From: Raillietiella orientalis
Taxonomy: Eukaryota
Direction: 5' to 3'
Length of the DNA: 64,000 nucleotides
Assembly (NCBI GenBank): GCA_036172245.1
Contig: JAYWIR010000004.1
Coordinates: forward strand, 1,984,001 to 2,048,000
How positions within the stretch are numbered: position 1 is the first letter of the stretch; every line of letters begins with the position of its first letter. Made by a program: the position numbers and the translations under genes. Positions 3,604 to 64,000 of this stretch are shown here, piece by piece. The notes under the pieces were generated by a model. That model was not told the DNA's origin. It saw only the letters and a list, made by a program, of their open reading frames with translations, and searched no databases.

Positions 3604-3676
3604 GCCGAAATAGCTCAGTTGGGAGAGCGTTAGACTGAAGATCTAAAGGTCCCTGGTTCGATCCCGGGTTTCGGCA
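3604..3676 (+). tRNA. tRNA-Phe (anticodon GAA), intronless
   Basis: GCCGAAATAGCTCAGTTGGGAGAGCGTTAGACTGAAGATCTAAAGGTCCCTGGTTCGATCCCGGGTTTCGGCA gives a full cloverleaf with A box, B box (GGTTCGATCC) and anticodon loop CTGAAGA. It matches the animal tRNA-Phe sequence as I recall it. Confidence 0.98.
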
Positions 3677-16150: not shown

Positions 16151-16449
16151 GCAGAAGAGCTGAAAGCTGTTGCATGATCAGAGGTGTTTTGAGAGCACAG
16201 CCATCACATGACAAACGCAACCGCTCAGGAGATTCGTAAGAGAGAATGGCAAGCGAGTTCTCCAAATTCCAGTCTTCCAGAAACAACCGGCCACGCGCCT
16301 TTCCCTGAACACCATAGAACAGCCGTTTTGTCTTTCTTGGAACGAGACCAGCTTCCTGAGACTCAGGTCTTCTGTTTTTTTTTTTTTTTTTTTTTAAAAA
16401 AAGCCTTGATCATTTCTTGTTTTTGTCCTCCTAAAGGAACTGGGAAAAA

Positions 16450-27314: not shown

Positions 27315-28604
27315 TTATCCGTATCCGGAGGCAGCGAATGAGTACTTGTATGGAGGAAGAAGTAAAGGCTGCCTAGGACTAAGGAAGCTAGCTGGAGAAT
27401 CCAACATCTTCACCCTATGATACAGCTGCTTCAAACTCCTCACTTCACTTGACAACGCGGTAAGGAAGTTAGCATACGATACCTTGGAAGAAATAGTTCA
27501 AAAACGAACCCATGAAGTCCCGACAGATGAAAAACTCGGGGAATTCATGACGGGTACTCTACATAGGAAAACCACACAACCCGGAAATGATATAGAGAGT
27601 CTCTGGACGAAAGGAAGGCCTCTAGAAGAGTCAAAGCCCGCTGGGAATTTCAACAAGGAGAACCCCGTATAACAGTTGACAGCTTAATCTTTACCAGAGC
27701 AACAAGGAGGATCACCTCCGGCGTGAGATCATTGCAGAGGGAACACGCATGGCAATCCCAAATCCCAAACCATATAAGTCAAGGAAAGCCATGCAGTGTG
27801 TGGGCATGCATCACTCCTCGAGCTTTTTTCACACGAACGGAATCCACCTAAGATTCCAAGATTACAAGTTTATCCATGCAGCAAGACTAAACCTACTGCC
27901 AATCAACGCTGGACCAACCTAAGAAGGACATGAACGCACACGACGGTGTGGGACAGAGGACGAAACGCTATCCCACATACTAAACAGATGCAAGAAGCAC
28001 GTTCCTCTAACGATGCAACGTCATGATTCGATTGAAGAGATCATCAGGAAGGCCGCAGCGGATGAGTCAAAGTTAAGTCTTATCTCAAGCAACCGGAGAG
28101 CTCCAGGAACCACTTCCATCCTAAAACCGGACCTGGTTTTAGAAAAAGAAAATCGAATAAGTGTGCTGGATTTCTGCTGCCCATATGAAAACGGCAAGGA
28201 GACTTTCGGCACATCCACAAGGAACAAAGAAGAGAAACATAAAGATATCGAACTGCAACTCGGAAGTAGTGGGAAGCAAACAAAGGTACTTGCGATCATT
28301 GTCGGCTCTCTGGGTGCATGGGATCCTGCTAATGAACAAGCAGTCCAGTACTTAGGAATACCGAAGAGAAAGCTTGTGGAGCTGAGACACCGGATGGTGG
28401 CTACCTGCATCGGTTACTCAAGCGTCATTTATGCAACTCATGTGAACAAGAAAAACGACAACCTCCTCGATCACTTGGATAATGATCTCCTTCCGGAAGA
28501 TCTCGAGCAAGTCAGTGAAACCCCATGAGGAAAATATCAACTGCTGGAGACTGTCCAGAGCCCCTTGCGTAAAAGATTTGTAATCCCACAAAACGAACAA
28601 TAAA
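27315..28604 (+). mobile_element. 3' part of an RLE-clade non-LTR retrotransposon (Utopia/NeSL-like), element B
   Basis: ANEYLYGGRSKGCLG..CFKLLTS; KFIHAARLNLLP; zinc-knuckle relic RRCGTEDETLSHILNRC; open ORF 28013-28528 with RHD, KPDLV, DFCCPYEN, K..K and IIVGSLGAWD (PD-(D/E)xK RLE). The element ends in AATAAA. Confidence 0.9.
28573..28604 (+). repeat. 32-bp perfect direct repeat, copy 2 (3' terminus of element B)
   Basis: Identical to 25704-25735. Confidence 0.97.
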
Positions 28605-29477: not shown

Positions 29478-31141
29478 TCATACTGTGAGAAAAAAACGGA
29501 ACAACAGGATGGCACAGCCAACTACTGATGTTAGGAGCACCACTTGCACACCTCTATGCCACAACCACCTTTTTCGTTGTTGCTGATGTTCCTGTGCTCT
29601 TTGCTTCTTTTTCATTTGCTCCACCTTAGTGGCCAACTCTTCTTGTTCCTTCTGACGTCTACGTTTTCTGACTTCTGCATGTCTGAAAAAATACAACCTG
29701 TGCAGACCTTGACTGCATCTCTGAGAACTACTTACTCTTCTTTCTGCACAGGTTCAGAGGGCAAAGGCTTATTTGGTATGCTATTGAGTGAATCAGAATT
29801 TTGAGGTGACATAACACAGTCCTTGGAACTATCTGGAAAAGTGCTGTCAGATTTCAATGGACTGAGTGATTGTGAACGCAAGGGAGGAATGGGAGGTGAC
29901 TCTTCCTCATTCTCACGGATGTCTCTCCAGTGCTCCAATGTTTTTATTTGCTTCCTACCAGCTAAGATAGCCTGGTAAGAGAATTTCAATTGTTCTGCTG
30001 TCTGAATTAGACCCATTCGATAATGGCGCATATCAAGCAGCAGATCTAGCAAATTCACTTCATCCTCCTGCTCCTTTTCCATCTACAGATCAATACTGTT
30101 GTATTTACAATTGTTTCTGTGCAATCTCACAATCAAAAGTGCTGAGTCAACAAGACAGAATGTTCCAGACCGACCAATTCCAGCACTACAATGAATAACG
30201 GCAGGACTGTTTGCATTTTCCAAGACGTCCCTTAATCTTACAGCCTGAAGAAATTTAAGAAATGCCCCAGGACTTTGTGGTACTCCGAAATCTGGCCATG
30301 CAAGATAGTGGAAGTGAAGAACAGTAGTGCTTTCCTTTGTATCCATTTTCCTTAGCCTGAAATAACCAGCAAGCTAACTGAAGAACACAAAAAAATGCAA
30401 TGGGGAAGACTTAATATAGATTTGGTACAATAGAATACCTCAGTTTACGGATTTTATAAAAGCCTTCATCAATCACTTCTAAACAGCTAACTGTAAGTCG
30501 TACATTATCAAAGTGCATTTCTGCTGCATGTTCATCTAGAGGAAAATACTGATGGCACTTAACCTTAGTGTGTATGCTGAAGACAGTAATTTAACTTGCA
30601 ATCCGCCTACCATATTTGTTTCAATTACTTTATTCAACATAATAATAGCACTTGATCCTTGTTCCCAGACCATTAACCAGAAATGGGATGCTGTATCAGG
30701 AAGTGGCCCCTGGGTTAAAATGTATGACCTCTGAGCCTTTTCAACCTACCAAAAAAATTTTTACAAAAAGCAATAAAACAAAATTACATTTCTATTGAAA
30801 GAACAAGTGGAAAAAGTGAATTGACATTTATTCACAGAAACCTTGACAATATTGGCATTAATGTAATTAACTGGTCCATTCTGTAACACAATTCGTGAAT
30901 GATCGAATGGGCTCACATCAGCATATCTGTTTAATTTCTGATTTTCGAGCTTTAGTGCCTCTTCTATAGAATGTTCATAACCACTGCTGACAGCTCTTAA
31001 GTGCTGGAAGAAAATTTTAAATTAGTAAAAGATGCAATCCAAATAACATTTTGAAAGTGAAAACATGAATCATGGTACCATAAATAAGACATTCCAACTA
31101 TCTTTTTCGTTTAATAGTGTGAATTCAGTTTCCAATTTCAT
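29478..31141 (-). CDS. PTPN1: Non-receptor protein tyrosine phosphatase, PTP1B/TC-PTP (PTPN1/PTPN2, Ptp61F-like), 7 exons, C-terminal tail anchor
   Basis: Exons at about 31141-31079, 31003-30842, 30745-30611, 30563-30439, 30356-30131, 30082-29736 and 29682-29478, with GT-AG introns. Motifs: [53 protein letters not shown]; hydrophobic C-terminus [18 protein letters not shown]. Confidence 0.93.
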
Positions 31142-36880: not shown

Positions 36881-37463
36881 TCAAATTCCAGAAACAATTG
36901 GTTTTGGTCTCGTTTTGAATATCAGTTTTTTTGTTATTAAAGCTTCAACAACGTAAGTTGGGTTTTTCAAAAGTGGATCTTGCAATCCTCCAACAGAGTG
37001 TATGTTGATGTTGCTTCTTTCACTAATTTGCAGATCATGGTTTGTGTTTTTTTTGATAACAGCAAAAGAACGTTCCAAAGGAATGATCTTTCCATACAAA
37101 ATATGGTGTCCCATAATCAAAATAGGTACTCCCTAGAATTAGAACTCTTAACATCCAAAAAAGTTTTTTAGTATCTTTTGAAAATAAAAATTTGCTAGAA
37201 AAAGAATCAAGACTTGCATTTATGCTCAGTGTCTATACCTCCTTAGTGTAATGTAAGTCCCCAATAAATTTCCCAGAAAAGCTTTCTTGATTTTTACACT
37301 TTATATCTCCTTGAAGCTCAATTATTGTCCATTCAGGTAATCCTCTCTCAGATGGGCAAACTTTCCTAAAAAATTAATCTAGAAGAGCGCACTTTATGAC
37401 CTTAACTATGTAAGCAGAATGCATTGTCGATATTGATTCAAAAGTGCCTTCTTACTCATACAT
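36881..37463 (-). CDS. CHTF8: Chromosome transmission fidelity protein 8 (Ctf18-RFC subunit), 3 exons
   Basis: [11 protein letters not shown]...[25 protein letters not shown]...[12 protein letters not shown]. Exons at about 37365-37239 and 37132-36881. The tiny first exon ATGTATGA|gtaag (37463-37456) is inferred from phase. Confidence 0.9.
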
Positions 37464-40441: not shown

Positions 40442-43400
40442 TTAGTTTTTAAATCTTATCAGTTGTAAATTCCAATCTCTAATACTACTCAATACATTGT
40501 TTAGTTGTTTACACCACATCATGCAGTCTTCCTTGGAATCAGCTGATAGAAGGTATCGCATTTCAGTTCGATCTCTATGGCATGTAACAATTAAACTGTT
40601 TTGTATCTGATTATTGGGTGGGTATATGAACTGTAACTGAAATGTGTTTGCACGCAAACAAACATCTCTTTCTACACATTTGACATTTTGTGTCATGCAG
40701 AATCTTAAATCAAGAGTACCACAAGGTGTATTAGATTTTTCAAATGGATACTTCCAATATGATAGTAGGAAGCCATTCAAAACACACCAGCGAAGATTCC
40801 AGGCACCAAATCCACCAACATCCTCAAAGATTGTGAGAAATCCGTTATGTAGATCTTCCTGCTCTGGGTCAATATTCAATTGTATTCTCATTGTTGCCAT
40901 ATGATACAGTGGAGAAGGAGGCACCTTAAACAAATTTGCAAAAGCAACATTGAGAAGGTCATTACTTTATCTAGTTTCCATTGTTGGTTTTTCAATTCAT
41001 CTTGGGTAATGGTAACCTTACCCACCAAACGAAATCCAGAAGACAAAGGTCTAGAGTCATTGTTTTGTTGTTTTGAAGTTCTCAAAGACTTCATGGGAGT
41101 GAGTTTAAGTTTATTTTGATCCTAAACCAAATATGTAAGCAATTTTTGTAATAGGCACATACCTTGAGATGATACTTGATTTCTGGTGCCAAAGTTTCAT
41201 GCTGGGCTTCTAATGCATATGCTTCTAAATAGACTTCAAATTTTGGTTGAAGCGCATGAATATTAATCATATTTGGAAACAATAATCGTCTATTCGTCTG
41301 ATCCTTACTAGACAGCACTTGTGTTGGGATCACATGCTCTTTATACCGTATCAGGCATAAGAAATAGTGAATACAGTTATTTGCTTTCTGTGCTGCATGA
41401 AAACAAATATCTTCCTCAAGATATAAACAAATATCAGAAAGTGCAAGGCTTATATCTATTGGTGAAATGTTGGTAATGCTTGGTTCTGTTGGCATTCCTT
41501 CCTTCAGAAGACGTTTCAACTCTTTTTCCATACATTGGTATTTTTCAGCTGAGAACAAGGGAAGAAAAAGAAAAAAAAAAAAAAATAGAACCAGACAATT
41601 CAAATGTTAATACTTTACTCGCAATCAGTAATACACGCTCTCCTTCAATTTGTTCCTGAGAACCCCTAAATTCAGGTGTATTCTTGCACCATGCCACTGC
41701 AGTACTTGTCTGTTTAATGACACTCTGCTGCATTTCCATCTTAAAACCCGAAATAAATCCATACTTTTATCTAAATACACCTCACCTCTTTTTCCAATGA
41801 TTGTATTCGTTGTTCTAATGATGAATTATTATGATCGTCGGTATAAACTGGATTAGGCTCTACATCCTTTCTGTATATAGCAGTCTCCTTATGCTACATA
41901 TATGGGAGATGGTTTGAAAGCATTACTCACCTCATCATCTTGATTGCAAATTTGAAAATTCAGCATCTCACAAAGCTCGGTATCTGTAGAGGAAGTGCTC
42001 GACTGAAATAGGAGTATTCTTTGAATATTTGCTGTGAGGTTTGAAAAGGATGAAATAGTGTACACAGGTTAGAATCAGAAAGCATACAAGTCACATGAGG
42101 TAGATAAAGAACACTACATTAGGCACTATTCAACAGAAATCACATAACACCTGTTTACCTCAACAAATAATCCATGATCTTTACAAGGTGTATCGTATAT
42201 GGACTCAATTTGTTCTACAATTCCTATAGAAATATCAGCTAGTTTCAGCTCCCCATCCTCCTCTTCCTCACTATCAAACACTATGCTACTCCTAGAAACA
42301 TACCATTTCTTACATGCTGCTATCCAGTCCATGCAAAGAGGGATACAGATTGCCAGGTTTCACCTCTGGACTCCATGGTTTAGGTGATTTAACCTTTTGA
42401 AATGCAGTCACAGGGCTAATGTTTGAGCAATAAAGTGTTGGTTCTGCAAATGAAGGAAGAGGAGGAGGAGTAGGGATGACAGACTGGGAAAAATGCTTGC
42501 TTGAATTTTCCATTATGCTTGTTCTGTTATTGGTCTTTGTCCCATATTTAGCAAGCTCTGAAATGGTTGTTTGAGATTGTAAGCGAGGCACTTTGCTAAC
42601 AGAGGTTTCTTGGATATCAGGAATATGTGAAAGAGGAAAACTGGGACCAGAAGCTTGTGCTTTAGTGGTAGGGACATAGGGAGATGCAACTGCATCAGTG
42701 TAAACAGGTTTTGTGGGCATTTGAGGTCTAACAGCACTTTTGGAGTGAATCCTGGGAGAAACTTGGTTTTTCTCTTGGCAGCCTAATTTTTCAAAAAAAG
42801 CCACTCTCTCAGCTAATGTTAAATGAGCAGGATCTCTGCTTGCTGGTGACCGTGATGCCATTGGCAAATTTTGAAATTGATTCACAATTTCCTTAGTACG
42901 CTTCTGCTGATCACAGGTTATGTCTGTTTTCTTTTTATGATCCATCTCTGATTGCTGCACTTGAAAGTTGTAAGCTAACTGAGATTTGGATCCAGAAGCA
43001 ACATAACCTTGAGCTTCCTGAGATATGTTTGCTATCGGATTTTCTAAAGAATTGCATACCAATGTGTTAACCATCTCTGAATCCCATTTGAGTTTCTTCA
43101 CAGTTTTGTGTGCCTTTGGTGTTGATGCTGCCTGTTCACCAATGGATTGCTTTGTATTGATATTATTGACAGGGCTGCTTTTTTTTGAAGGCACTGCATT
43201 TTCGCGACCATTGATATCATCAGCTAATGCAGCTAAACGTGCTTTTCGCGCCCTTTCATAATCTTCAGTACATTTGGGTGCCACATTCTCACCTTCTTTT
43301 GGCAATAATTGAAATGTTGGACTGGACCATGCTGCAAAAATGTTTTTTTTTTTAATTTCGAGTCATAACAATTGTACATCACATAATTCTAATTCAATAT

Positions 43401-48751: not shown

Positions 48752-51700
48752 ATGCTCAAGAAGAAAGCTACTTTAGTGCTGGATGATGGATTTCAAATGG
48801 AAGGATATGCGTGCGGAGCAAATGGTTCCTCTTCTGGAGAACTAAGTATTTATTTTACTGTTTTTGTTTTGTTTTTATACTGCTTTTGTGCTTGCAGTTT
48901 TCCACACCGGTGTAGTTGGTTATGCTGAAATTCTCAGTGACCCCGCGTACACCGGGCAAATCATAATATTCACATATCCGTTGATCGGAAATTCAGGTGT
49001 GCCCGGAAAAGAAGAAAAGGACTGTTTTCACTTGAGCAAGTAACGTTTATGAAACATGCATCTGCATTTCGTTATCTTTCATCGTAGGTTTTTTGAGTCT
49101 ACGCATCTGTGGGCATCGGGTTTAGTGATGGGAGAACTTTGTGAGATTCCGAGCCATTGGAGAAGCATCCAGACGTTGCATGAGTGGATGCTTTCGGAAA
49201 ATGTACCCGGGATCTTTGACATAGACACGCGGCAGCTGACCAAGCATCTGATTAAAAGTGGTCCAAAGCTGGCAAAAATAATTTTCGAAGGTGACGATCC
49301 AGATTCGGTGCCTTTCAGGAATCCGAATGTTCGTGACCTCGTCTCCGTGGTATCGACTAAGGTCAGAATCCTCTGAAGACTCTCAGCTCCCTTGTTACAG
49401 TTGTCTTTCCGTTTCAGGGATTGAAAATATTGAACCCTTCTGGTTGTCCAGTTGTTGGCGTTCTGGACCTAGGAGTCAAAAACAGTGACATCCGCCTTTT
49501 GATTAGTTACGGTGCTTGCGTCAAACTTATGCCAGCGAATAGTAATCTACAGATATCAGATATTGATGCCCTTGTATTGAGTAGCGGACCCGGGGATCCA
49601 AGTGTCTATGAAGATATTGTACAGAAAGTCAAGCAGTTGCTCCAGAATACGGATGTTCCCATTCTCGGAATCGGTCTGGGTTGCCAGATCCTTGCATTAG
49701 CAGCTGGCTGCTCTACGTATAAGATGGAATTCGGTTGTCGTGGACTTAGTCAGCCGTTAATGTATAATGGGACTGATATATGCGTGCTGGCATCCGAGAA
49801 TCACGGGTATTCAATAGAGAAAGACTCTCTGCCTCCAGACTGGCAGACTCTGTTCGTCAATGCAGATGACCTTTCGATCGAAAGCATCATCCATGTATCC
49901 AAGCCTTACTTAGGGTAAGTGATTACTGCTCACAAATGCAGCTACATCTTCTCTCTTATACTGCAGGGTGCAGTTCCAAATCGAGCAGTGCCAAAGTGAA
50001 CGTGATATCGGGAAATTGATGAGCATATTCTTACAAGCAGCGCGAAGTGATCTGCGGTTGTCCTCCTTGAAGCAGGCCATCGAAGACAATTTGTTCAGAA
50101 AACACTTACACTTTAAACTTTCGCCGAAGTATATCAGAAAAGTTATACTGTTGGGCTCCGGAGGACTAAAAATAGGTGCACTCCTGCATATAGTAGATAC
50201 GCTCTTGTGTTATGGTTTTCGTTTGCAGATATTCAACTTAATTTCTCTTTTTCTCGATAAGGTCAAGCTGGTGAATTTGATTACTCTGGGTCTCAAGCCA
50301 TCAAGGCCATCAAGGAAGAGTGCCACGAACTGATCCTCATTAATCCTAATATTGCAACGGTTCAAACATCGAAAAATCTTGCTGATAAGGTTTATTTTTT
50401 GCCGATCACTCCGCATTACGTAGAACAAGTAAGAATGATGGAGAGTTTGGAAGGTTGTTTAAACTCCGCGAAATTCAAAGGTCATCCAGAGAGAACGTCC
50501 TGATGGGATTCTCCTAACTTTTGGAGGCCAGACTGCTCTTAATTGTGGCATCGAACTGGAGACAAAAGGAGTTCTTTCACGTTATAATGTTTCAGTGTTG
50601 GGAACACCTATAAACTGCATCATGGACACAGAAGACCGTAAGAGGTTCGCTGAGAAAATTACCAGCGTCGGCGAGAAAGTGGCACCCAGTGCGATTGTGT
50701 ATTCTCTCGAAAAGGTGTGCGTAGCTGTCAGAAATCCGCAGACAGTGAAAAGTTTTAGGCAGTAGAGGCTGCTCGGTCGTTGGGTTATCCCGTCTTGATA
50801 AGATCAGCATATGCATTAGGAGGACTCGGATCAGGGTTCGCTAACGACGAGGCGCAGCTTTTGGAACTGGCAAGGAAAACCTTTGTCAGTTCTGAACAGG
50901 TCATCATCGACAAGAGTCTGAAAGGATGGAAGGAAATCGAATTCGAAGTTGTCAGGGACTTTTTAGGCAACTGCATCACGGTGAGGATTTCGTGCCCAGT
51001 GGCCTTATGCGCGATTTGCTGTTGAAGGTGTGTAGCATGGAAAATGTGGATCCACTAGGAATCCATACAGGCGAGTCTGTGGTCGTAGCTCCCTGTCAAA
51101 CCCTGAGCTTCGAGGAGTTTAGCATGCTGAAGAAGGCGGCTCTCAAGATTGTTGATTACTTGGGAGTGGTGGGGGAGTGCAACATCCAGTACGCTCTTGA
51201 TCCGCATTCGTGCACCTATTACGTCGTCGAGGTGGGAAAAAGTTACATTCTTTCACAGGAGTTAAATCAATTGAATACTTTCAAGGTGAATGCTCGCTTG
51301 TCCCGTAGTTCAGCTTTAGCCAGCAAAGCCACAGGTTACCCTCTAGCGTACGTCGCAGCAAAGCTGGCATTGGAACTTCCTATCACATCCATCAAGAATG
51401 CAGTCACCAAGGTCACAACGGCATGTTTCGAACCCTGCATTGATTATTGCGTGATCAAAGTACCAAGATGGGATCTCACCAAGTTTAGTCGAGTTAGCAC
51501 GAAGGTTCGGGAAGTGGGAGAACGCTAGTGGCATTCACTCTACGTTCATAGATCGGCAGCTCCATGAAGAGCGTTGGCGAAGTCATGGCCATAGGTCGAA
51601 ATTTCGAAGAGGCTCTGCAGAAAGCTCTCCGAATGATGGACGAAAACGTGTCCGGGTTCGATCCATATGTAACTGACCTCTCGGAAGAGGTTCGTACTCC

Positions 51701-54700
51701 AGAGTGTTCCAGATGGATGAAGCGGTGCTTTTCAGGAGCTGGAGTACCCAACGGATAGACGAATTCTAATGCTGGCGGCAGCACTATACCAAGGATTGGA
51801 TATCGGTTACCTCTACAAATTAACCGAGATAGATGCTTGGTTCCTGCAGAAAATGAAAAACATCATCGACATGTACAAAACATTGGAAGAAAGTTCTGGA
51901 AAAGAGTGGTCTCGGGAAATTTTGCTTGCGGCAAAGAAATTGGGCTTTTCTGATAAACAGTTAGCACACTGTTTGCAGAGTACAGAACAAGCTATACGGA
52001 AAAAGAGAATCAAATTAGGTACGCATCTCTTGTGCCGTGCACTTTCAATGTTTTCTGAAGGCGTGAGCCCCTTTGTGAAGCAGATCGATACTCTTGCGGG
52101 TCAGTGTTCCACGGAAACAAATTACTTGTATACCACGTACAATGGTATCTCCCATGACGTGCAGTTCCCCGGAGGTGCCATCATGGTTTTAGGTTTGTAC
52201 AAGAGGAAGTGCTTGCAACCATCGCCGCTTGCACATCCATTCAGGTTCTGGCGTCTACCGTATAGGAAGCTCCGTTGAATTCGACTGCTGCGCGGTGGGA
52301 TGCCTGATGGAACTGAGGAAGCTGGGAAAAGAAACAATCATGCTAAATTGCAATCCAGAAACTGTTAGCACCGATTATGATATGTGCGACCGCCTGTACT
52401 TTGAGGAAATCTCATCCGAGGCAAGCCTTAACGTGTTTTCGTGAGACAACCTTGTTTTCTTTTTTTTCTTCTTCTGTGTGTGTTTGTGTTTCTTGCCTCC
52501 CCAAGGCTGTCCTGGAAATAACAGATCTCGAAAAACCAGAGGGATGTATTTTGTGTATGGGAGGTCAACTTCCAAACAACATCGCAATGACTCTTTATCG
52601 GCAGCAAGTGCACATATTAGGCACTTCACCTGTTAGCGTCGATGAAGCGGAGAACCGCTTCAAATTCTCGCGCATGCTTGACAACATTGATATATCGCAG
52701 CCGAGGTAATGTATGGTTTTTTTTGGGGGGGGGGGCTGACCGGCAGAATGTATAATGCATGTTTAGATGGAAAGAGCTCAGCAACATGGAATCTGCAATT
52801 CGCTTCTGTGAAGAAGTTGGTTATCCGTGCCTCGTGAGACCATCGTACGTGCTTAGCGGCGCCGCGATGAGCATTGCGCACTCCGAACAGGATTTGGAAA
52901 GGCTGCTGAGCAAGGCATCAACGGTTTCCAAAAAGCACCCCGTCGTAATCTCGAAATTCATCCTGGATGCCAAAGTAAAAGGATTTTCTTGACATGTCGG
53001 AGTGTCATCACCCCACCCCGCCCCCTCCCGCACATCTGCAGGAAATCGACGTGGATGCTGTGGCAAAGGAGGGCCAGATTCTTTGCATGGCCGTGAGCGA
53101 ACATATCGAAAATGCCGGCGTGCATTCTGGAGATGCCACGTTGGTCACTCCTCCTCAGGATCTAAATTCCGAAACACTGGCACAAATAACGGAAATTTGC
53201 CTCGCCATCTCTATGCAACTCCAAGTTACTGGACCCATGAACATACAGCTCATCGCGAAGGTCAGTAGAAAGCTCTGGCGTGGCCGCACTCGAATCCCAC
53301 TTTTTCGATCAGGAGAACAAGCTGCAGGTTATTGAGTGCAATCTGAGAGCCTCCAGATCTTTCCCGTTTGTTTCGAAAACTTTGGGATATGATTTCATCG
53401 CCGTGGCGACGAGAGCTATAATTCTAGATAAAGTTGAATGCGAGAACGTGATGATATCCGACTGCGGCAAAGTAGGCGTCAAAGTGCCTCAGTTCTCGTT
53501 TTCTCGACTGGGAGGTCGGTAAACGGCTACGGTGCCCATCCGACTCGTTCCCCCTCCCTCGACACCGTAGGTGCTGATGCCACGCTGGGTGTCGAAATGG
53601 CCTCCACGGGAGAAGTTGCGTGTTTCGGGGAGACCGTTTACGAGGCTTACTTGAAAGCGCTGCTCAGCGCGGACTTCCGAGTCCCTTCTTCGTCCATCTT
53701 CCTGTCCATAGGAACTTACAAGGTAAACTGCAGCCCTTCTGGGCAGAGCGAAAATCCTGCCCTCCTTTCGTCGCAGCACAAAGCGGAGCTGCTGCAGAGT
53801 GTCCGGACGTTGCAGAGGATAGGCTTTCGGCTCTACGCCAGCGTGGGCACCGCGGATTTCTATTCCGAGCACGGGATAAAGGTGTGGGATCGGCGGATGT
53901 TCCCTTCTGACCAAGTGTCGTGTTGCACTCGCCAGGTGGAAGCTGTGGAGTGGCCATTCGAAGAAATCGGAGAAAACACCACCACAGGCCAATTAAACAA
54001 CATCGCTGCCTATCTAGCCAGCAAAAAATTCGATTTGGTGATTAATTTGCCCACCAGGAACAATTTCGCCCGTCGCGTATCTTCTTTCGTCACCCAGGGC
54101 TATCGCACTCGCCTGATGGCTATCCAGCATTGCATACCTTTGGTAACGGATGTCAAGTGTGCCAAACTTTTAGTCAAGGTAAACTTGCTGTTGCTGTTTT
54201 TATCAAAGAAGAAAAAATCGATTTTGTCAGGCTTTGCACTTGATCGGCGGCGAACCAAAACTCAATCCCTATATCGACTGCCAGTCATCCAGAAAACTTA
54301 TACAACTTCCTGGTTTAATTGATATACACACTCATATACGGGAACCTGGATACGAGCACAAAGAAACGTGGAGCTCAGGAACGTGTGCTGCTTTATGTGG
54401 GGGGTTCACCATGATTTGCGTGATGCCGAACTCGAACCCACCGATGACGGATTTTGCCTCGCTGCTGTACGTTGGAGACATCGCTCGGCTGAACGCCTAC
54501 TGCGACTACGCCCTTCTCGTTGGCGCATGCAACACCAATGCTACCTATGTCCACGAATCCGCGCCGTTAACTGTCGGCTTGAAGATGTTTCTCAACTCAA
54601 CGTTCACAAGTTTGAAGATGGATTCCATGGCAGTGTGGCTCGAAGTACTTCACCTTTTTTTTTTCTTTGTGTGTGTGTCATCGAGGTCATCTCGAAACTG

Positions 54701-57338
54701 TTGCTTTTCTAGCATCTGCAGCACTGGCCTATTGATTATCCTATCTGCGTTCATGCCGAAGGGGTGACAACCGCCGCAATCTTGTTCCTCACAATGATGC
54801 TGGACCGATCCATACACATTTGCCACGTATCCACCAAGGATCAGATCGAAGTTATCCGAGCAGCCAAAAAAATGGTAAGTGAATTCCATCTTAAGGGGAT
54901 CTCGCCCTGCCACCAAATGCACCGAAAGCGCCCTCTTGTTTTGCTCAATCCTCTTGCAATTCTTGCAACGTTGAGGGCTTGTTGTGAACCGCAGTCGGTA
55001 GTAGTGCTCCAGCTATGCGTTCATTTCAGGGGCAAAAGGTTACCTGTGAAGTATGCCCGCATCATTTATTTTTGACGCCGAAGGATGCAGAAATCCTAGG
55101 AACGCGGCTCAGCAAGGTGTGCCCTCGGTTAAATACTGTGGAAGATCAACAGACCTTGTGGAACAGTATGGACATAATCGATTGCTTCGCGTCAGATCAC
55201 GGTGAGATCTAGACCCCGTCCGGATGTCGTAAGGTTTCAAACTACAGCTCCCCATCTGCGTTCCGAGAAGGAATCGAGCGACCCTCCTCCTGGGTTCCCT
55301 GGCTTAGAAACGATGCTCCCCTTACTTCTGACAGCAGTCAAGTCCGGTCGACTGACCCTAGAAGTGAGTGGTCTCTGCGTACCAAGCACAGCCCAGTGGT
55401 TTCGTTTCAGGATCTGCTTCAGAAGCTGTACCACAACCCTCGAAAAATATTCAAACTTCCAGAGCAGTCAGATACGTACATCGAAGTGGACTTGGATGAT
55501 GAATGGACGATTCCCGAGGCAATGCCGTATTCGAAAGCGCAGTGGACACCATTCTCTGGATTCCACGTGTGCGGTCGAGTGACGCGAGTGGTGTTACGAG
55601 GTGAACTCGTTTTCCTCGATGGAATGGTAAAGCAACTTTCGATGAAAACGAAACAAAAAAATAATAATGGGAACTGTAGATTCTTGGGAAACCAGGATTT
55701 GGCGTGAATGTGAAAGCGCACATTCCTTTTCCTACCGATATGGAAACAACGGTCCAGAAAATAACTGTTCCCGTTATTGACGATCGCTCTCTACACGAGA
55801 AAAGGGAAGCACACGGTAAGGTTGCCGTTTGTGTGGTCTCACGTTCTTCGAGTACTGTTCTCCACTGTCATCTTTCCGTGCTTTTTTAATGTCGCTTTCA
55901 GTTGAAGCTCTATAAGGGCGAGTTTTTGTGGGTGATAAAAAGGATCTTTATGAATGCAAGAACTGCGAAGACGGTCCTCTCGGGTAAAATTTATCAAGTC
56001 CGTATCCTTGACTCCTTTGCATTATTCAGTTTCTTGGGTTCTTGGTTCAGCTCAACTTCACCGATCCGTTCCATGCACTTGTGTGCATGGCTGTCATCTC
56101 GAGATGTTTGCATAATCGTATCCCCCTCCTCAGAAATGGACCAGAAAGTGAGCTTCGGACCCCGTATCAAAGAGCTGGATCTGCGGACGTCAGGTCTGCA
56201 TTTCCAGCACTTGCTGAGTGCCTCTCACCTGACCAAAGAGAACTTGGCGGGAATCTTCAATCTGGCTCACTACTTCGCCATCTGCGTTCAACAAGACAAA
56301 CCGATTCACGAATTCCTAAAGGTGACTTTTCGGGGTTTCCTTGCGTCTGGCCTTTTAAAACGGAAGGATTTCCTTCCAGGGAAAAGTTCTGGCCACAATC
56401 TTTTACGAACCAAGCACGCGCACCCAATGCAGTTTCGCCGCAGCGATGCAGCGGCTGGGCGGCACAACCATAAGCATGCACGGGAAGCATTCCTCAGTTG
56501 CGAAAGGGGAGACGCTAGAAGGTGAACGGTGTGGTGGAGCTGGACCACGTGTTCACGCCGGTCTTTTCAGATACTGTTGTGACCATGGCCTGCTACGGCG
56601 ACGTGCTCGTGGTTCGTCATTCCGAAGTCGATATAATTAAGGTGGGGGAGGGAAGAGGAAAGGGGTAGCATTTCATTTGCTCTGCGTAGCGTGTGGCCCA
56701 GTTCAGCCGCAAACCACTAATCAACGCGGGGGATGGTACTGGCGAACATCCTACTCAGGCCCTGCTAGACATATATACCATACGCGAGGAAATAGGTACC
56801 GTCAATGGGCTTGTGATCACCATGGTGGGAGATCTGAAACATGGCCGCACCGTCCATTCACTCGCCAAACTGCTTACCTTGTACCGAGTCTCGTTTCGGT
56901 ACGTCTGCCCCCCTGGACTGGGCATGCCCGAAGGCGTGCGTCAGTATGTGGCATCTCGTGGAATAGCTCAGGTTTGGGGAAAGGAGGATGTTTCTGCCAG
57001 CTCTCCACGGATCCGGTTTTTTTTGGGGGGCTGTTTAGGAAGAGTGCTCCAGTCTTGAGGACGTGCTGCCCCACACGGATGTTCTTTACATGACCCGCAT
57101 ACAGAAAGAACGCTTCGCGACCGAGGAAGAGTACCAGGACTGCTGCGGCCATTTTATCCTGACGCCGCATTTGATGACAAAAGCCAAGTCGAAAATGATA
57201 GTTATGCACCCTTTGCCGAGAATATTCGAGATCAGCAACGAAGTGGACAGTGATCCGCGTGCAGCTTACTTCCGGCAGGTGGAAAATGGCATGTACATCC
57301 GTATGGCACTGCTGTGTATCATCTTGGGGAAACTGTGA
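48752..57338 (+). CDS. CAD: CAD multifunctional protein (GATase-like / carbamoyl-phosphate synthetase / dihydroorotase / aspartate transcarbamylase), about 33 exons
   Basis: [22 protein letters not shown] motifs [89 protein letters not shown] and [13 protein letters not shown]; DHOase [23 protein letters not shown] and ASDHAPH; ATCase [25 protein letters not shown] and HPLPR. About 32 short introns traced by eye; exons in the DHO-ATC linker are uncertain. Confidence 0.97.
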
Positions 57339-57350
57339 TCGTGCCGGTCA

Positions 57351-57356
57351 AATAAA
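57351..57356 (+). promoter_or_regulatory. Probable polyadenylation signal of CAD
   Basis: AATAAA begins 12 nt after the stop codon. Confidence 0.55.
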
Positions 57357-58749
57357 TCGGGCCGCAATGTGAGAATGCAGTGTAAGAAGTGATCTGGAGT
57401 TATCTTGGATCAAGTGGGTGGTGGGCGAAACAGCGATGCGGAAGGGAGCGAACCCGGACAACAAGAAATGGCATTCCAGAGTGCAAGTTCCGGAAGGCTT
57501 TGTTTCGTAGGAAGCAGCTGCGATTGTTCGAGTGATAGGGAGTGACTCTTTGAAGTCTCCGTTAGTAATCCACCGTTCCTGACGTTTATCCCCTGCTACC
57601 GTGTGCTCTGCGGTTTCGAAGAATCCTTGAAATACATTCGATGTGCTCCCTCATGAACATGCATTGCATTTGTGATTTCTAATTGGCAAATTTGAAATTC
57701 CGGCTTGCCACGGCACCAGTCTCCGCTATCCAATCATCAGTGCTTCAGGCCTTTTGAGGCAAGACGTTTGGTTTCCGTTCGAGAAGAAAGATCTTTGTTC
57801 GGAGCTCTCGTTATCTGCGATCACGGCAGTTTCTGCATCACGTCTGATGGTTGCAAGATTTGGGCTTCCAGAAAAAATTTTTGTAGCTCCAAAGAGGTTC
57901 GAAAGATGCAAAGAGACGCGGAGAATATGACGAGTTCAAGTGATTCCCCACATGCTACACATAGGGCGCACACACACACACGTATGAAGGATAAAACAGC
58001 CTTTATCGAAATCACGCTTGCGCGAAGCCGTGAAGAAGCCGAGTCCGACGAAGCAAGGGCAAAGCAGGGGCAAACCGAGCAGGTCTGGCGAGCATCCGTG
58101 CCTGCTTGTCACACGCTTCATCAAAGTGCATCCACGTCGATAAAGTTCTGTAAGTGATGTGGCGTTTGTCACATCATAAGGTGTACTTTATCGCGCTTCA
58201 TGGCCAAGCCGTTTCGTCCCCGATGGCAACCATCCAAGGAAACATCCAAGACATGGAGAGAAGGGCTAGTGCATGCCTCCGACACGAGCCGCGCGCTGCC
58301 AATTCCCCTTGAAGTTTCGAGATGCCATTTTCATCTGAATGAGTTGTAGGACCTCCGCACTCTGTCTCTGATTTGATTTGATTTTCGATTCATCCGTTAA
58401 AAGTCTTTGAATGTTTTTTCATCATCTTCTGGTCAGTTGCACCTCCCAAGGGGCTCCTTGAGGACTTGCAGATGATACAGAATCAGTCTAGTCTAGGAAT
58501 TACTAGGCAGTTTACTCTGGGAATCTAACGCTTTCCTAAGATGTTACCGTACGTGGTCCGAATTTTCACGTGACTACCTTACGTATCTGATTTCATTTTT
58601 TATTGATCTTCGTGGGCTTCAGTTGCGTTTGGTAAGGGCAGATTGCAGGAGGAAGGGAAGTTCTGCGCTGTTCATCAACTGGTTCTCTTGAGTCAGGCTG
58701 CTAAGAGCGATTGGTCTCTCAGGCGCATCCATGGGAAGGACGGGCAGCG

Positions 58750-59450
58750 ACTCGTCCCGCGCTTCCAGTGTATCTACCTCTCCGGAATAGAGGATTCTGA
58801 TGCAGCCCTTCTCCTCTCTGATGCTGTCTTCTTGTCCTTTCAGAATCTTCGTCATTCTGAGCATGTTGTCGTTCTCTTGATCCCACGATCCCAGGGTCGT
58901 CTTAACCATTGCCGAGACTCCTTTAGAGGCGAAAGTTGAGTTCCCAATTCTCGACCTTCGCTCTTCTCCTGCCTTGCATCTTCTAGCGCCTAGGAGAACT
59001 GTTCATTTATCCGATCGTTTCATTCATCCTATCTGCTTAAAAATAATTACGAGTGCATCCAAATAAATAAATCTTCAACCTCGAGGCCATGGTGAATGGA
59101 CAGATACGAAACTGGAAAACCTCAGGAATCAGTTTTGCAGGAGGCTTCAGGAGACTTAGTCACCACTGAAGGCGAGGAAGCGAAAGTCGGAAGGAATTCT
59201 GAGCGCAGGAACGTTGGAGAAGAAAGAGGAGCGGAAGCCCTGCTTACTTTGCAGCAAGCAAGCACTGGCAGAGAACTCTTGCGGAGAACTCTCTCCTCCC
59301 CAGGTGATCAAATATCCTGCACACTGTTTCCACATCACTTCCATGATCCGAGACAGCAAATTAAAAGTGGTATATCCCTGTTCCTCCAGAACGATACGGG
59401 AGTTTCTATGTAAGGCGTTTTCTTTTCTAAAGAGCAATTTGTGCTTTCAA
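58750..59450 (-). mobile_element. Decayed 3' fragment of an RLE-clade element (element D)
   Basis: ORF 58619-58909(-) begins TTLGSWDQENDNMLR, matching the LG(A/S)WDPAN tail of element B. Upstream sequence is very degenerate. Confidence 0.45.
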
Positions 59451-60469
59451 TGTAGCTGGTTACTTTGCATGGAAGGTGGGCGTCGATGATCCTACGAATT
59501 CACTCAGGAACCGCTCTGTAAGCATACCAAATTAGCCATCTTCACATTGTTCTCATCCCGTTGTATCTGAAAGTAGCCTTCGCTTTGCAGCCAATTCTTT
59601 GCTGAGGAATTCATCAAGATGAAAACCATGTTGTAATATAGCAGTGGTGTGCGAACTGTGCGTTTGTTGTTGTTTTTCAGACCATGATCGAGCAGAAATT
59701 CATTGCAGGAGTCATCGCTTTTCATCTCAAAGCCACAGCTCTTTTGGTTTGAAAAGCTGGTTTACAGTCGGACCATTTCTAGTAAAAACATTTAAGAAAC
59801 CCTCTGCTCTCGAATAAAAACACTGTAGTGAATTCCTCGTCTAATTTCAATGGTCCTGCAATCCGGCAACCAAAAAAAAAAAAGATAAAGCTCATCTCCC
59901 AGAAGTTTACTCTCAATCTCGCAGAGAGCTGCAGCGTACAGCCTGCGTGCGAGTGCAATAGAGAACAGAACGATGCAACCACTTGCTGATTTCTTCCAAG
60001 GTGGACTGAAGGAGAGAGGCACTTCGAGACATTTCAGGATATAAAAAGTACTGCTACGGCGTTGCTGGTGGAAGCGTTCTGCGCTGCACCAGCTGGAGAA
60101 CCAGCATTCAGAGAAGTTTATGCAAAGACTGCCCGGAATTCTTTGTCCAGGGTCCCGCCTCAGCAAAGAGTCCAAAAGTTCAGAAGTATCATAATGGAAG
60201 TAATAGAAAAAGTAGAATTTCGGGGAGGCTGTTCAGTACTTCCGTATCCGTTAGTTTCTCCAACTGCTCGTTCACTCGAAACCTGCCATTTTAGGTGCAG
60301 GTGGGAGTCTTTGTGAAAGACGAATACAAAAACATTTTAAGACAGTAGATGGTATGGAAAACAAGATAATACCTATATGGACAACATGTGGAGTACATAA
60401 GACTACAAAAGAAACTCCAACCATGTAGGGGAACCAAGAGTGAGCTTAACACTGCTACCCCCATGGGTC

Positions 60470-62300
60470 GACTGTAATGCAAGTACAATAGGCCAGCATA
60501 TGGTTGACCTTCTCCAGCGAAAGAGCATTAACAAACCACGCTCACCGCTACATAAAGGAAAACAAGAGACCTAAGGATGATACAACCCGACCACACTCAG
60601 TGGAGTGTTCACTACGTAAGAGTTCCACCTCCCAAAGAGATAGGGAGGACTGCCCACACGATGGTGGCACAAATGACAATGAAACGAAGCAGGAAAAACT
60701 AAGAAAATGAGGATAAAGATGACAGCACATGGGAGAGCTCGGTATTTCAATTACATACCTATACTGTGAAAATGATCCCTAAGTCGCGGGAGGTATCGCA
60801 TCCCCCTCTGGACATCACTCCACAGGAAAGGAGAGAAATCAGAAAGCAATGATCGACAAGAGAGGGAGGAAAAGACCTCTCCGGATGGGATAGACAGCAC
60901 TCTCCACGAGAAAGGTCCAAAGATCTTTGACATTGGGAGCCCACTTGGCTACCGACGAAAGAACAGGAAGTGAAAGAAACCATGTGAAAGAAAGGAAAGG
61001 AGTGAAGACCAGGTGCTGAAGAAGAAGAAATCAATGAAGCCTAAATAAAGAGCGATGGTAAATGACCTCTCGGTTAAGTTTACGAGAGAGAAAGAAAAAC
61101 TAAACAGCTAAACAGCTTAGAAAACAAACAGGAAACAAACAGCTTAGAAAACGAGCTGTCCCAATCATTAGAGTTTTAGGGGTTCTGGAGTTGATTCTGC
61201 GCGTGGAATGATCGGATGGCATGCCAATAGCTTGCGGGATGTGTCCGAATCCTCCTGACCCGGCTACCGATTTTCCCACAAACAGCATGAAACTGCTGAG
61301 ATCTGTAAACTGCAAAATACTTCGGATCCGGAAGCACAGGAGTTCTCTTGAGATATACTATGGATGGTAAGAGAATAAGTTGAGTGCACCAAAGATGGAT
61401 GCAGGTTTGGTAGCATTCATTCATTCGTATTGGTGGGTAATTCAATAGGTCCAGAAACGACTGAAAGGAGGAAGGAGCGTTTGGATTGCAGGAACACGAA
61501 CATGTGCCCACCCAAACACGAGGGATCTTTGGGGAACTCGAGCCCAGAATCCTCATGATAGAGTGCGAAAGATCGCCTCCAATATATCCACGATCCAGCG
61601 CAAAGCGTGGCCTTCCTTTGTCGAGACGCCCCCAGGCCGAAGGGAGGCTGAGTCCTGCGCGGACCAACATCGTACGTCGGCACAATTCCACCTCAGGAGG
61701 GAAAATCCAAGATTGATTCACACGTGGCGCGGCACCACACACCTGTAAGAGGAATGCTCATTGGGGATGGAGTTGATCACATGTTCGGGAGGTGCAACTT
61801 CGGGGAGGAACACCTCAACCATACTCTCAATCACCTCAACTTCCTCACGATCACCGAGAAGCACGATGAACTAGTAACTCTGATCAGGAAAGCTGCGCGA
61901 GGAAAGTCTGAGAGTCTGAGCTGGTGACTTCGAACCAAAGTATTTCCTATGGGGATTGCAACCTGCGAAAGAATCTGGTGCTCAGGGTGATGCAAAGGAA
62001 ATCAATAATAGACGCTGCCTGGCCTTACGAGTGTTCCAAGAAAGCACTAGAAGAAGCCGGATTAAGGAAGAAGAACGAATGCAGAGGATTGGTTCTCCAT
62101 TTTGCTGACAAAAGAGTGAGAAACCAAGATAGTAGCAGCATCCCTCAGAACAATCATCGTAGGATCTCTAGGATCCGTCAAACAACGAAGTGCTAAGAGA
62201 ACTGAGTATCCCTAAGCGATGGGTGGAACAGGAAGGAAATGTTTGTACCCAAGCATGGCTGCTCCAGGGAGATGCATCTGGAAGCGCAGGCTGAAGGCAT
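60470..62300 (+). mobile_element. Decayed, apparently internally deleted RLE-clade element (element C)
   Basis: C2H2-like relic FSSERALTNHAH (~60510); knuckle relic GRCNFGEEHLNHTLNH; KHD (RHD-like); RKNLV (RPDLV-like); IIDAAWPYECSKKALEEAGLRKK; GSLGS..NNEVLRELSIPKR. No RT motifs were found in between. Confidence 0.65.
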
Positions 62301-64000
62301 CGCCATCGATGGAGGGACCCTCTCTAGACCACAGCCTTGGGTGGAGGATGCAGCGGTGAGGGCAGCGGAATAGCGAATGTGACGGAGAACCCCCTGGGCT
62401 TCAGTTGCACCCTCCCCTGGCACATCATTTGTAGAACGCAAGGCACGAATCCATCATTCTTTCTCATGTTGCTTTCTTTCACCATGCAGACCTCGTGTAG
62501 CCCTCCATTCGAGTGCCATCGTCAGCGAGAAAGCTGCTTTTGCCCCGCCTCAGAAAGCAGAAGGCCTGAGGCTTCTGCAAGATCGGCTGCTGATTCTTCG
62601 ATTTCGCCAAATGAATTCCTCCTAAATGGTGTTTAAGTGCTCAGAAGGAACGGAGCCACCGAGCGCACCGAATGATTGCTATTAAACGAGTGTACGCCTC
62701 TCCTTAGATCTTTAAGCAACAATCCGAGAACAGTTGGGAAGTCTCGTGTACACCCACTTGTCTGCATCAGCACACATCTCGAGAAAGGAGCACAAGAACG
62801 ATAAATGCTACCAGCAAAAATGTCAGGGCGCGATTCGCTAGACTGGGTCATAGCAAGAGACTCCTCTGCCATTCTTCGGTTACATATACGCTCCAGGATA
62901 ATTCCGAACTCTGAACTCCGTGGACAACTATTCAAACGCATTTCTTGCATGCCGTCATACACAGACTTTACTTTCACCCTCATGTATATGCATATATACT
63001 TGGTGTGTGTATGCGTGTTGTACAATTGCTGCTTATTTATGTGCTCCAACATCCGCCTCAGGTTACCAGAACGGAAATCGAAACGAAGCAAAAAGGCTTT
63101 GTGTATTGTGCTTCGCACACTGTCAATGTCAGTATCCGTACTCAGCCTCCTCTGTTAATTCTCTACTTCTTCCTCTATTCGCTTTCTGCTTTGCTATGTG
63201 ATGCAGCCGCATTTCAGCAACTCTTCCGCTGCCACAAAGAACGGATAGGTTCCAAGAGCAGGCAAAATGGTGCCTCCTGTTGCTGCAAGCTGCAAGTAAC
63301 TCAGAACAGTGATGATGCCCACACTGCTAACTGCATTGTCCCGTACCCTGCCGTTGTATGACACAGACAGATAGCTCTGACTCCAGCTCACGTTTAACCA
63401 AGATTTCATGCACAAAAAAAGAGGAGGGGGGGGGGGAATCTCCTCTTCACGCTGCTTTTTACTAAAGAGTTTCCGTGCAAGGAAATCTTCCGACAGTGTG
63501 GTTAGGTTGGCTCCCCGAACAAGACGATCACGTGCACTTCCCACCGGAGCTCACGGGCAGGGTTGCAGTCTCGATTCAACTAGTAAGTGACTCGTCTCAC
63601 ACTTTATGACAGTTGGAGGGAATGGCATTGATGTGCTCTCTCTGAACTCTTGGATAAAGAAGCTTGGTGTTTGTGATGTTCTGTCCAAGAAAACATTTGT
63701 CGAGCTTCGCATCTGTCTGTGTTGAAAGACTACTTTTGTGAGGTTCTCCACTTTTTTCCACCACTCAGAACAGTGAGAGGGAGAACATTGGGGATGCAGA
63801 ACATAGGCGTAGAGGTTTCTCGGAATCCTTAATGAGTCGGTATACCGGCATTTCCCCTAAGGACTTCGAGAGAAAGCGGGGGATTAGGTGATTCTCTGTG
63901 CTTGCTCTCTTTCCTATAAGACGACTACGGTCTTGATCTTCGTTCCCCCAATATTTGAAGCGTAAAAAAAACAAAAAAAAAACCCAAAAAAAGCAAAAGA

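Follow-up and report, generated by a model that had tools for sequence, protein, structure and literature searches.

The locus analysed here raises the question of whether a CAD protein that appears complete in its other domains can still draw its nitrogen from glutamine. CAD is a glutamine-dependent CPS II according to two papers (PMC6022934, PMC8442968), and an earlier note on this DNA had read the glutaminase domain of the encoded protein as catalytically dead. We re-examined the locus within the window, by which we mean the whole 64-kb stretch of DNA that was analysed, using gene modelling, alignments to structures and references, and homologue searches.

Gene model and domain order

The CAD gene is predicted on the plus strand at 48752-57338, with 32 exons and a 6519-nt CDS encoding 2172 aa; all features described below lie on the same strand. 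Exons were inferred from open frames and GT-AG junctions, and the 31 introns range from 42 to 318 nt (median 52). Two junctions of the model are uncertain (acceptor at 50480 or 50489; donor at GC 52421 or GT 52433), and both fall outside the GATase domain. The open frame and the two motifs claimed earlier were recovered: the spliced frame of 6519 nt runs through 2172 codons without a stop, with PITP at residue 453 and the RRxSSF motif, here RRVSSF, at residue 1405.

The N-lobe of the glutaminase moiety is carried by exon 2 (48898-49039), based on alignment to 1t36_B/1a9x_B, and the remaining N-lobe, the CPSase small-chain domain, by exon 3 (49088-49361; Pfam PF00988, 4.3e-15). Exon 4 (49418-49914) contains the class I GATase core. 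It is separated from the triad loop by a 52-nt GT-AG intron at 49915-49966 that had already been proposed and proved to be the highest-scoring junction, splicing ...PYLG to VQFQIE in frame. Exon 5 (49967-50175) includes VQFQIE and the linker and extends into the synthetase. The synthetase itself, with two ATP-grasp halves and the integrating and allosteric domains, extends over exons 5-21 (50142-54178) and is apparently intact. The DHOase domain follows in exons 22-26 (54231-55626; exon 22 against human 4c6o_A and Pfam Amidohydro_1), and the end of the next linker and the ATCase domain occupy exons 28-32 (56134-57338; exon 31 against human 5g1n_A).

Pfam and PDB matches, combined with the inferred splicing, give the order GLN, SYN, DHOase, ATCase in one predicted polypeptide, which is the order found in a single frame in animal CADs. 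The predicted protein begins at the conserved N-terminus and, in the alignment, has no presequence like that of lemur CPS1.

Catalytic positions of the glutaminase domain

Three codons had been singled out in the earlier note, and all were read where it had placed them. At the nucleophile elbow, positions 49670-49687 read ATC GGT CTG GGT TGC CAG (I-G-L-G-C-Q), so that Gly256 (GGT, 49673-49675) occupies the nucleophile position. The corresponding residue is C269 in E. coli and is numbered C252 in human CAD in PMC8442968. The window elbow aligned without gaps to PVFGICLGHQLLALASG of E. coli CarA (1a9x_B), which placed the Gly at C269, and equally without gaps to GISLGHQ of the CarA C269S mutant (1c30_B) and to PLFGISTGNLITGLAAG of human CPS1 (5dot_A). 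The elbow G-I-G-L-G lacks the nucleophile of G-x-C-x-G, a Cys that all 12 references carry.

In the triad loop, positions 49968-49985 read GTG CAG TTC CAA ATC GAG (V-Q-F-Q-I-E). Gln340 (CAA, 49977-49979) stands at the triad His, which we take to be H336 in human CAD; Ile341 (ATC, exon 5) replaces the neighbouring Pro, while the triad Glu is kept as Glu342 (GAG, 49983-49985). Local alignment with 270 retrieved homologues likewise gave Gln at the triad His position and a retained triad Glu, and 221 of these homologues have C/H/E at the triad positions. The loss of both the nucleophile Cys and the triad His, as claimed earlier, was reproduced in tool alignments to CarA, to CPS1 and to the 12 references. 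Each of the two replacements, Gly for Cys and Gln for His, is a single nucleotide step from the usual codon.

Two further sites are changed. In the N-lobe, positions 48939-48950 read GAC CCC GCG TAC (D-P-A-Y), and window SDPAY aligned with E. coli TDPSY puts an Ala (GCG, 48945-48947) at CarA Ser47 (382-residue numbering). All 12 references have Ser in this column; the window and lemur CPS1 share Ala. The equivalent Ser44 of CAD was reportedly given a role, in a 1999 paper, in coupling the glutaminase to the synthetase. The second site is GCRGLSQP (GGT TGT CGT GGA CTT AGT CAG CCG, 49733-49756), in which Ser281 stands where the references have an invariant Asn, and Leu280 is aligned to Gly293 of E. 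coli and Gln318 of CPS1, a site identified as an ammonia-tunnel position in PMC4655335. Direct reading of the sequence confirmed SDPAY, GCRGLSQP and VQFQIE as the altered motifs.

We give next to no credence to an assembly or sequencing artefact, since it would have to account for ten or more distinct residue replacements at invariant columns, in three different exons and all in frame. Sequencing error had been dismissed earlier as well, and this judgement holds with seven changes at invariant GATase columns, which is more than chance. RNA editing was considered and rejected, as it would need G>U and A>U/C changes and not A>I or C>U. A search for an alternative exon restoring FHPE, an outcome that would have overturned the earlier claim, found none: tblastn with four GATase/CarA queries detected no other GATase-like stretch in the 64 kb, and therefore no alternative exon there could restore the site.

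The altered elbow could in principle support another chemistry, with Cys259 or a different residue as the nucleophile. Cys259 (TGC, 49682-49684) lies three residues downstream of the nucleophile site, where E. coli GICLGHQ has its His. It belongs to the first turn of the helix that follows the elbow, and the Glu of the triad has been kept. However, this helix aligns gaplessly with LGHQLLALASG, so the Cys cannot slide onto the elbow; the general base His and its adjacent Pro are gone, and the Ser47-equivalent is Ala. We know of no class I amidotransferase with its nucleophile at this position and find the proposal barely credible. The earlier placement of this Cys off the elbow is borne out. 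An alignment shifted by three residues so as to seat Cys259 on the elbow was also considered and was ruled out by the gapless helix.

A dead glutaminase in the window CAD is well supported by these alignments, and the glutamine-hydrolysing activity (EC 6.3.5.5) should be absent, as predicted from the missing catalytic Cys and His.

Retained fold and distribution of the changes

The glutaminase moiety has lost catalytic residues and retained its fold, and the other domains of the protein are intact. The GATase domain is a recognisable class I member (PF00117, 7.6e-26; 91.4 bits, cut-off 22.8). In the PDB, exon 4 matched human CPS1 best (5dot_A, 8.7e-31), with E. coli CarA at about 1e-21; exon 5 alone matched no PDB chain.

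To place the changes along the protein, invariant columns were defined as those unchanged across 12 intact eukaryotic references. Seven of the 32 invariant GATase columns are lost in the window (C256G, N281S, G326S, H340Q, P341I, G346S and P347E), and the 25 that are kept include SSGPGDP, the Leu and Gln of G-L-G-x-Q, and ENHGY. With 3 of 22 columns lost in the N-lobe, changes in the whole glutaminase moiety amount to 10 of 54. The synthetase keeps 206 of its 211 invariants (122/127 in CPS_A and 84/84 in CPS_B), and the five CPS_A changes are all conservative (L>I, I>V, R>K, L>I, E>Q). The difference between 7/32 in the GATase domain and 5/211 in the synthetase gave a Fisher p=1.8e-4. Concentration of the losses in the glutaminase, with intact CPS, DHOase and ATCase parts, had been put forward in the earlier note and agrees with these counts. 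For the last two domains, comparison with structures covered exons 22 and 31: exon 22 matched the human CAD DHOase 4c6o_A (5.1e-36), with its HxH stretch aligned to human LIDVHVHLREPG and GLKMFLN of its GLK stretch to GLKLYLN, and exon 31 matched the human CAD ATCase 5g1n_A (1.6e-41).

The ratio of GATase to CPS_A identity was 0.66 +/- 0.04 for the window against the 12 references, compared with 0.86 +/- 0.07 among the references themselves (66 pairs). The apparent relaxation spans the whole glutaminase moiety, beyond the catalytic residues. The dead-glutaminase interpretation given earlier therefore stands with respect to the residue losses and their restriction to one domain, but relaxation is not limited to a few catalytic residues.

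That the N-terminal domain is free of stops and frameshifts is expected because the downstream domains require an open frame, and the open frame is therefore uninformative on selection acting on the glutaminase domain. Divergence of the whole moiety would equally suit recent neutral drift.

Homologue searches returned no close relative. A word search with the GATase exon among proteins of 290-2000 aa, a range that excluded full-length CADs of more than 2000 aa, gave at least 120 matches of 319-417 aa at 31-45% identity. A near-length search with the same exon gave 3 matches at 42-45%, a HMMER search of representatives at least 150 proteins at 34-50% identity, and a metagenome scan one locus at 43% identity on a 407-kb contig. 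Across the word, near-length, representative and metagenome searches, no orthologue of the GATase domain closer than about 45% was found. A tree of 16 sequences over residues 1-930 left 10 of 13 inner branches unsupported and the window without a supported sister. Markers other than CAD were also compared: a PTPN1/2-like exon had at least 120 matches at 40-70% identity, distributed among arthropods, molluscs, a nemertean, a cnidarian and vertebrates, and the Atlas returned rhotekin-like clusters at 0.82, short of the 0.9 taken as a lead; the source was assigned to animals.

The best representative match (1.1e-47) was Rotaria socialis CAM4984383.1 (P0121, 909 aa), an animal CAD-like protein that resembles the window CAD in having Gly at the nucleophile site and in its SENHG. 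It differs in its triad, with Asn for His and Asp for Glu, and in keeping only 79 of 118 CPS_A invariants; its identity to the window is 39%, and no support for grouping the two came from the tree. Dead-triad CAD-like proteins with the look of decaying copies exist, this one and P0250 being examples.

A second CAD paralogue would account for the locus differently. An intact glutamine-dependent CAD would be encoded elsewhere, and the window copy would be redundant, drifting or subfunctionalised, for instance in mixed hexamers. The Rotaria protein, a degenerate copy with a dead triad (G/N/D) in another animal, sets a precedent, and the excess divergence across the whole glutaminase moiety also fits. 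A redundant copy should decay throughout, as the Rotaria protein and P0250 (84/125) have done in CPS_A, whereas the window copy keeps nearly all its synthetase invariants with conservative changes only, and its DHOase and ATCase exons remain close to human. The 64 kb, in addition, hold no second GATase-like sequence. We consider a paralogue unlikely, although worth weighing.

Early pseudogenisation, with an organism living on salvaged pyrimidines and a CAD that is decaying from the glutaminase domain onwards, appears improbable. Relaxation of the glutaminase moiety as a whole would suit it, but the loss is old enough for 10/54 changes there, and yet all 2172 codons are open and the synthetase has only its 5/211 conservative changes. 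These figures argue for purifying selection acting outside the glutaminase moiety.

Nitrogen source and comparison with known systems

The reading that we favour, and regard as moderately probable, is that of a working animal CAD whose glutaminase moiety has turned into a pseudo-enzyme and whose synthetase is fed by free ammonia. Under this reading the dead moiety would hold on to its class I amidotransferase fold and still contact the synthetase. It could form no glutamyl-thioester, having Gly for the nucleophile Cys, Gln for the activating His and Ala at the Ser47-equivalent. Free ammonia entering through or beside the dead domain would supply the intact synthetase, DHOase and ATCase for the production of carbamoyl phosphate, carbamoyl aspartate and dihydroorotate. 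Expression of the gene, its position as the organism's sole CAD and the use of ammonia as its nitrogen source in vivo are inferred; the window CAD would run on free ammonia.

Ammonia might alternatively be delivered in trans, by a separate glutaminase or CarA-like protein that docks on the dead domain. The surroundings of the glutamine site are largely kept (Leu and Gln of GLGxQ, ENHGY and the triad Glu), as a docking role might require. On the other hand, the window has no GATase- or CarA-like sequence elsewhere, and no glutaminase family was detected among the 115 ORFs scanned. We know of no ammonia-delivering partner acting in trans for any CAD, and this arrangement seems decidedly improbable.

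Uptake of free ammonia, as favoured above, would be the mode used by CPS1 in the urea cycle. In human CPS1 the catalytic Cys is a Ser, glutaminase activity is absent and ammonia comes from outside, as described in PMC4655335 and PMC8442968. CPS1 (human 5DOT/5DOU) and the window CAD both retain an inactive glutaminase-like module with the nucleophile Cys replaced, and lemur CPS1 shares the Ala at the Ser47-equivalent. They differ in the replacement itself, Ser in CPS1 and Gly in the window, and in the rest of the triad, since CPS1 keeps His and Glu (A/S/H/E). CPS1 is also a stand-alone protein, about 1500 aa long, that carries a mitochondrial presequence, depends on N-acetylglutamate and acts in the urea cycle (PMC4655335 and PMC6022934), whereas the window protein lacks a presequence, is joined in one chain to DHOase and ATCase and has a CAD-type allosteric region.

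Compared with animal CADs, the window protein keeps the synthetase invariants, PITP and RRVSSF, and its DHOase and ATCase exons match human; the domain structures of human CAD are the 4C6C-type DHOase and the 5G1N ATCase. It differs from human CAD in having Gly for the catalytic C252 and Gln for H336, and from animal CADs in general also at the adjacent Pro, at the Ser47/Ser44-equivalent and at four more invariant GATase columns.

To our knowledge, CPS1 of the urea cycle is the only established ammonia-specific CPS in animals. A dead glutaminase with an intact synthetase in a CAD would be a second, independent case of the CPS1-type transition. We advance only tentatively, as somewhat short of probable, the stronger claim that the animal's sole de novo pyrimidine pathway is ammonia-fed, through an independent conversion of the CPS I type inside CAD, for pyrimidines and not urea. 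If this is true, the organism would be a natural exception to the glutamine dependence of pyrimidine CPS II and would be naturally insensitive to glutamine-analogue inhibitors at the CPS step. Such a protein would provide a natural test of the route by which external ammonia reaches the carboxyphosphate site, would show the structural role of the glutaminase moiety once glutamine hydrolysis has stopped, and would tie the organism's nitrogen economy to nucleotide synthesis. Full-text literature searches found no published report of a dead-glutaminase CAD, which is weak evidence of its absence from print, with subscription journals mostly outside their coverage.

Comparable triads occur in bacterial proteins of CarA size (P0034, named from Capillibacterium, P0097 and P0114), which, like the window CAD, combine Gly and Gln with a retained Glu. 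In P0097 and P0114 an Ala at Ser47 completes an Ala/Gly/Gln/Glu state identical to that of the window. Unlike the window domain, these are separate small subunits of 350-400 aa, with 31-45% identity to it, and the shared loss is a case of convergence and not of common ancestry.

Gene model and catalytic residues of the glutaminase

The CAD gene, at 48752-57338 on the plus strand, was modelled from open frames and scored GT-AG junctions, with six uncertain junctions judged by eye. The model, in which splicing is inferred, has 32 exons and a CDS of 6519 nt encoding 2172 aa with no internal stop. Its 31 introns (48846-57038) range from 42 to 318 nt (median 52 nt); 27 are shorter than 70 nt, and six of the 31 use AAG acceptors in this inferred structure. 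The donor at 52421 is probably GC, a GT at 52433 being an alternative that would add four residues. Both doubtful junctions fall in the synthetase, outside the dead-glutaminase finding, which is located at the 5' end of the gene. The longest intron (318 nt, 55816-56133, in the DHOase-ATCase linker) could conceal a small exon. Family matches come in the domain order expected of CAD. Pfam detected the CPSase small chain in exon 3 (4.3e-15), the class I GATase in exon 4 (7.6e-26) and an Amidohydrolase match in exon 22, all on the plus strand, and the model matched the human CAD DHOase (4c6o_A, 5.1e-36) and ATCase (5g1n_A, 1.6e-41).

Direct reading of the codons bore out the earlier note's description of the active site. 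The nucleophile Cys is replaced by the central Gly of I-G-L-G-C-Q (GGT, 49673-49675), the triad His by the Gln of V-Q-F-Q-I-E (CAA, 49977-49979) and the Ser of TDPSY by the Ala of D-P-A-Y (GCG, 48945-48947), while the GNRGHNQP-type stretch reads GCRGLSQP (49733-49756). The intron at 49915-49966 was the top-scoring junction. Judging from the genetic code, each of the three key changes would have taken one nucleotide step (TGY>GGT, CAY>CAA and TCG>GCG).

Using HMMER against solved structures, the 17-residue elbow segment aligned without gaps on E. coli CarA PVFGICLGHQLLALASG, on human CPS1 PLFGISTGNLITGLAAG and on the E. coli CarA C269S mutant GISLGHQ. SDPAY aligned on E. coli TDPSY, so that its Ala is the equivalent of Ser47. 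Ser47 of E. coli contacts the intermediate, and the equivalent residue in CAD was reportedly the subject of a study by Hewagama et al. in 1999. Leu280 of GCRGLSQP corresponds, counting along the CarA/CPS1 alignment, to E. coli Gly293 and to CPS1 Gln318, a position described for CPS1 as blocking the ancestral tunnel for ammonia (PMC4655335). In human CAD the catalytic residues are predicted to be C252 and H336, and huCPS-1, with Ser for Cys, is described as having no glutaminase activity (PMC8442968). Around the glutamine site the protein retains SSGPGDP, the Leu and Gln of G-L-G-x-Q, ENHGY and the triad Glu.

Because it has no elbow thiol, no general base and an Ala at the Ser47 equivalent, the glutaminase, on its sequence, cannot function as a class I amidotransferase. 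The Cys noticed earlier three residues downstream of the elbow Gly is indeed present (TGC, 49682-49684), and we consider it very unlikely that the glutaminase uses an alternative nucleophile.

Domain specificity of the damage

Fifteen long homologues taken from the representative search were aligned with the CAD model: 12 have an intact triad, and the others are lemur CPS1, a Rotaria protein (P0121) and a metagenome protein (P0250). Among columns invariant across the 12 intact-triad sequences, the window protein keeps 25 of 32 in the GATase (changed: C256G, N281S, G326S, H340Q, P341I, G346S and P347E), 19 of 22 in the N-lobe (F21C, S48A and R134I), 122 of 127 in CPS_A (L>I, I>V, R>K, L>I and E>Q) and all 84 in CPS_B. 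The S48 column is Ala in lemur CPS1 as well. Losses are concentrated in the GATase, at 7/32 versus 5/211 in the synthetase (Fisher p=1.8e-4). Against the 12 references, the window protein has a GATase/CPS_A identity ratio of 0.66 +/- 0.04, compared with 0.86 +/- 0.07 among the 66 reference pairs; the references are the best matches to the window protein's own GATase exon, a choice that, if anything, masks part of the identity deficit.

Together these measures argue for relaxed constraint across the whole glutaminase moiety, strongest around the active site, in agreement with the earlier proposal of relaxed selection on glutamine hydrolysis. The remainder of the protein is under ordinary purifying selection. 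Early decay of the gene in an organism that salvages pyrimidines would also begin with such losses, but with the synthetase columns kept we regard it as improbable; an artefact is hardly credible.

Relatives and proposed source of ammonia

No relative of the GATase exon above 50% identity appeared in the word, near-length, representative or metagenome searches, the word search spanning proteins of 290-2000 aa, a range outside which full-length CADs fall. The near-length search gave three matches and the metagenome scan one locus at 43% identity. The best representative among the 150 listed was P0121 (Rotaria socialis CAM4984383.1, 909 aa; 1.1e-47, 39% identity), with Gly at the nucleophile, Asn at the His and Asp at the Glu position; P0250 (2097 aa) has the triad S/N/E. 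Both are eukaryotic and CAD-like with a dead triad, as in the window, but unlike the window protein they have degenerate synthetases, keeping 79/118 and 84/125 CPS_A invariants, respectively. The tree, in which 10 of 13 inner branches were unsupported, gave no support for pairing P0121 with the window protein.

Among the 150 representatives listed, 118 have C/H/E, 20 are without one or more triad positions and 16, overlapping the 20, are non-canonical, including two mammalian CPS1 (A/S/H/E, the first letter being the Ser47 column), one euglenid protein and P0250. The 120 word-search matches listed comprise 103 with C/H/E and 16 non-canonical. Both lists were ordered by similarity to a query whose own site is dead, and so are enriched for dead sites. 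Four proteins of bacterial CarA size (369-379 aa; P0034, named as a Capillibacterium protein, P0041, P0097 and P0114) have Gly at the nucleophile and Gln at the His position and keep the Glu; in P0097 and P0114 the Ser47 position is Ala too, giving Ala/Gly/Gln/Glu, identical to the window state. Conversion of a CPS glutaminase domain into a pseudo-enzyme is already known from CPS1 and seemingly also from these bacterial CarA-size proteins. What is new here, as far as sequence can indicate, is such a pseudo-enzyme inside an otherwise intact animal CAD; a full-text literature search, with most subscription-journal papers outside its coverage, found no description of a CAD without glutaminase catalytic residues.

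CPS synthetase domains are described as accepting free ammonia, the sole route in CPS1 (PMC4655335, PMC6022934). Combined with the dead glutaminase, this makes an ammonia-fed CAD the simplest reading, and one we favor by a modest degree: the synthetase would draw ambient ammonia for carbamoyl phosphate, and the dead moiety would be kept for folding, synthetase contact and perhaps ammonia entry. Doubt about this reading lies nearly all in the content of the rest of the genome and in expression, not in the dead site. This copy may instead stand beside an intact CAD paralogue, a possibility to be taken seriously though not the one we prefer. Within the 64 kb, tblastn with fluke, fungal, bacterial and CPS1 glutaminase-moiety queries matched only at 48767-50045, leaving neither a separate carA nor the alternative exon that might have restored the triad. 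Delivery of ammonia in trans by another protein seems quite unlikely; no nitrogen-metabolism family was found among the 115 ORFs scanned with Pfam in 24000-48700 and 57300-64000 (the ORFs of 60 aa or more numbered 177, of which 62, short or overlapping, were removed by hand).

Other features of the window

A tRNA gene at 3604-3676 on the plus strand (RF00005, 69.8 bits) is the sole Rfam match at gathering score. Four exon-size ORFs at 29735-31021 on the minus strand match Pfam Y_phosphatase and form a PTPN1/2 (PTP61F)-type tyrosine phosphatase. Its catalytic exon shares 40-70% identity with proteins from many animal phyla and has no close database relative. Also on the minus strand are a Ctf8-like exon (36884-37132, Pfam 6.4e-06) and a rhotekin/anillin-PH gene (40445-43362). 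This gene comprises exons for an anillin-homology region (1.1e-15) and a PH domain (4.4e-12), plus a 350-aa exon without a family; rhotekin clusters, at 0.82, are its look-alikes in the Atlas. The 201-aa open frame at 27923-28525 on the plus strand has no Pfam family and is presumably similar to the C-terminal region of a non-LTR retrotransposon protein. The block at 16000-24000 has a GC content of 58-62%, versus 33-49% in the rest of the window, and all six of its frames hold long open frames with low-complexity strings rich in Pro, Gly, Arg and Ser.
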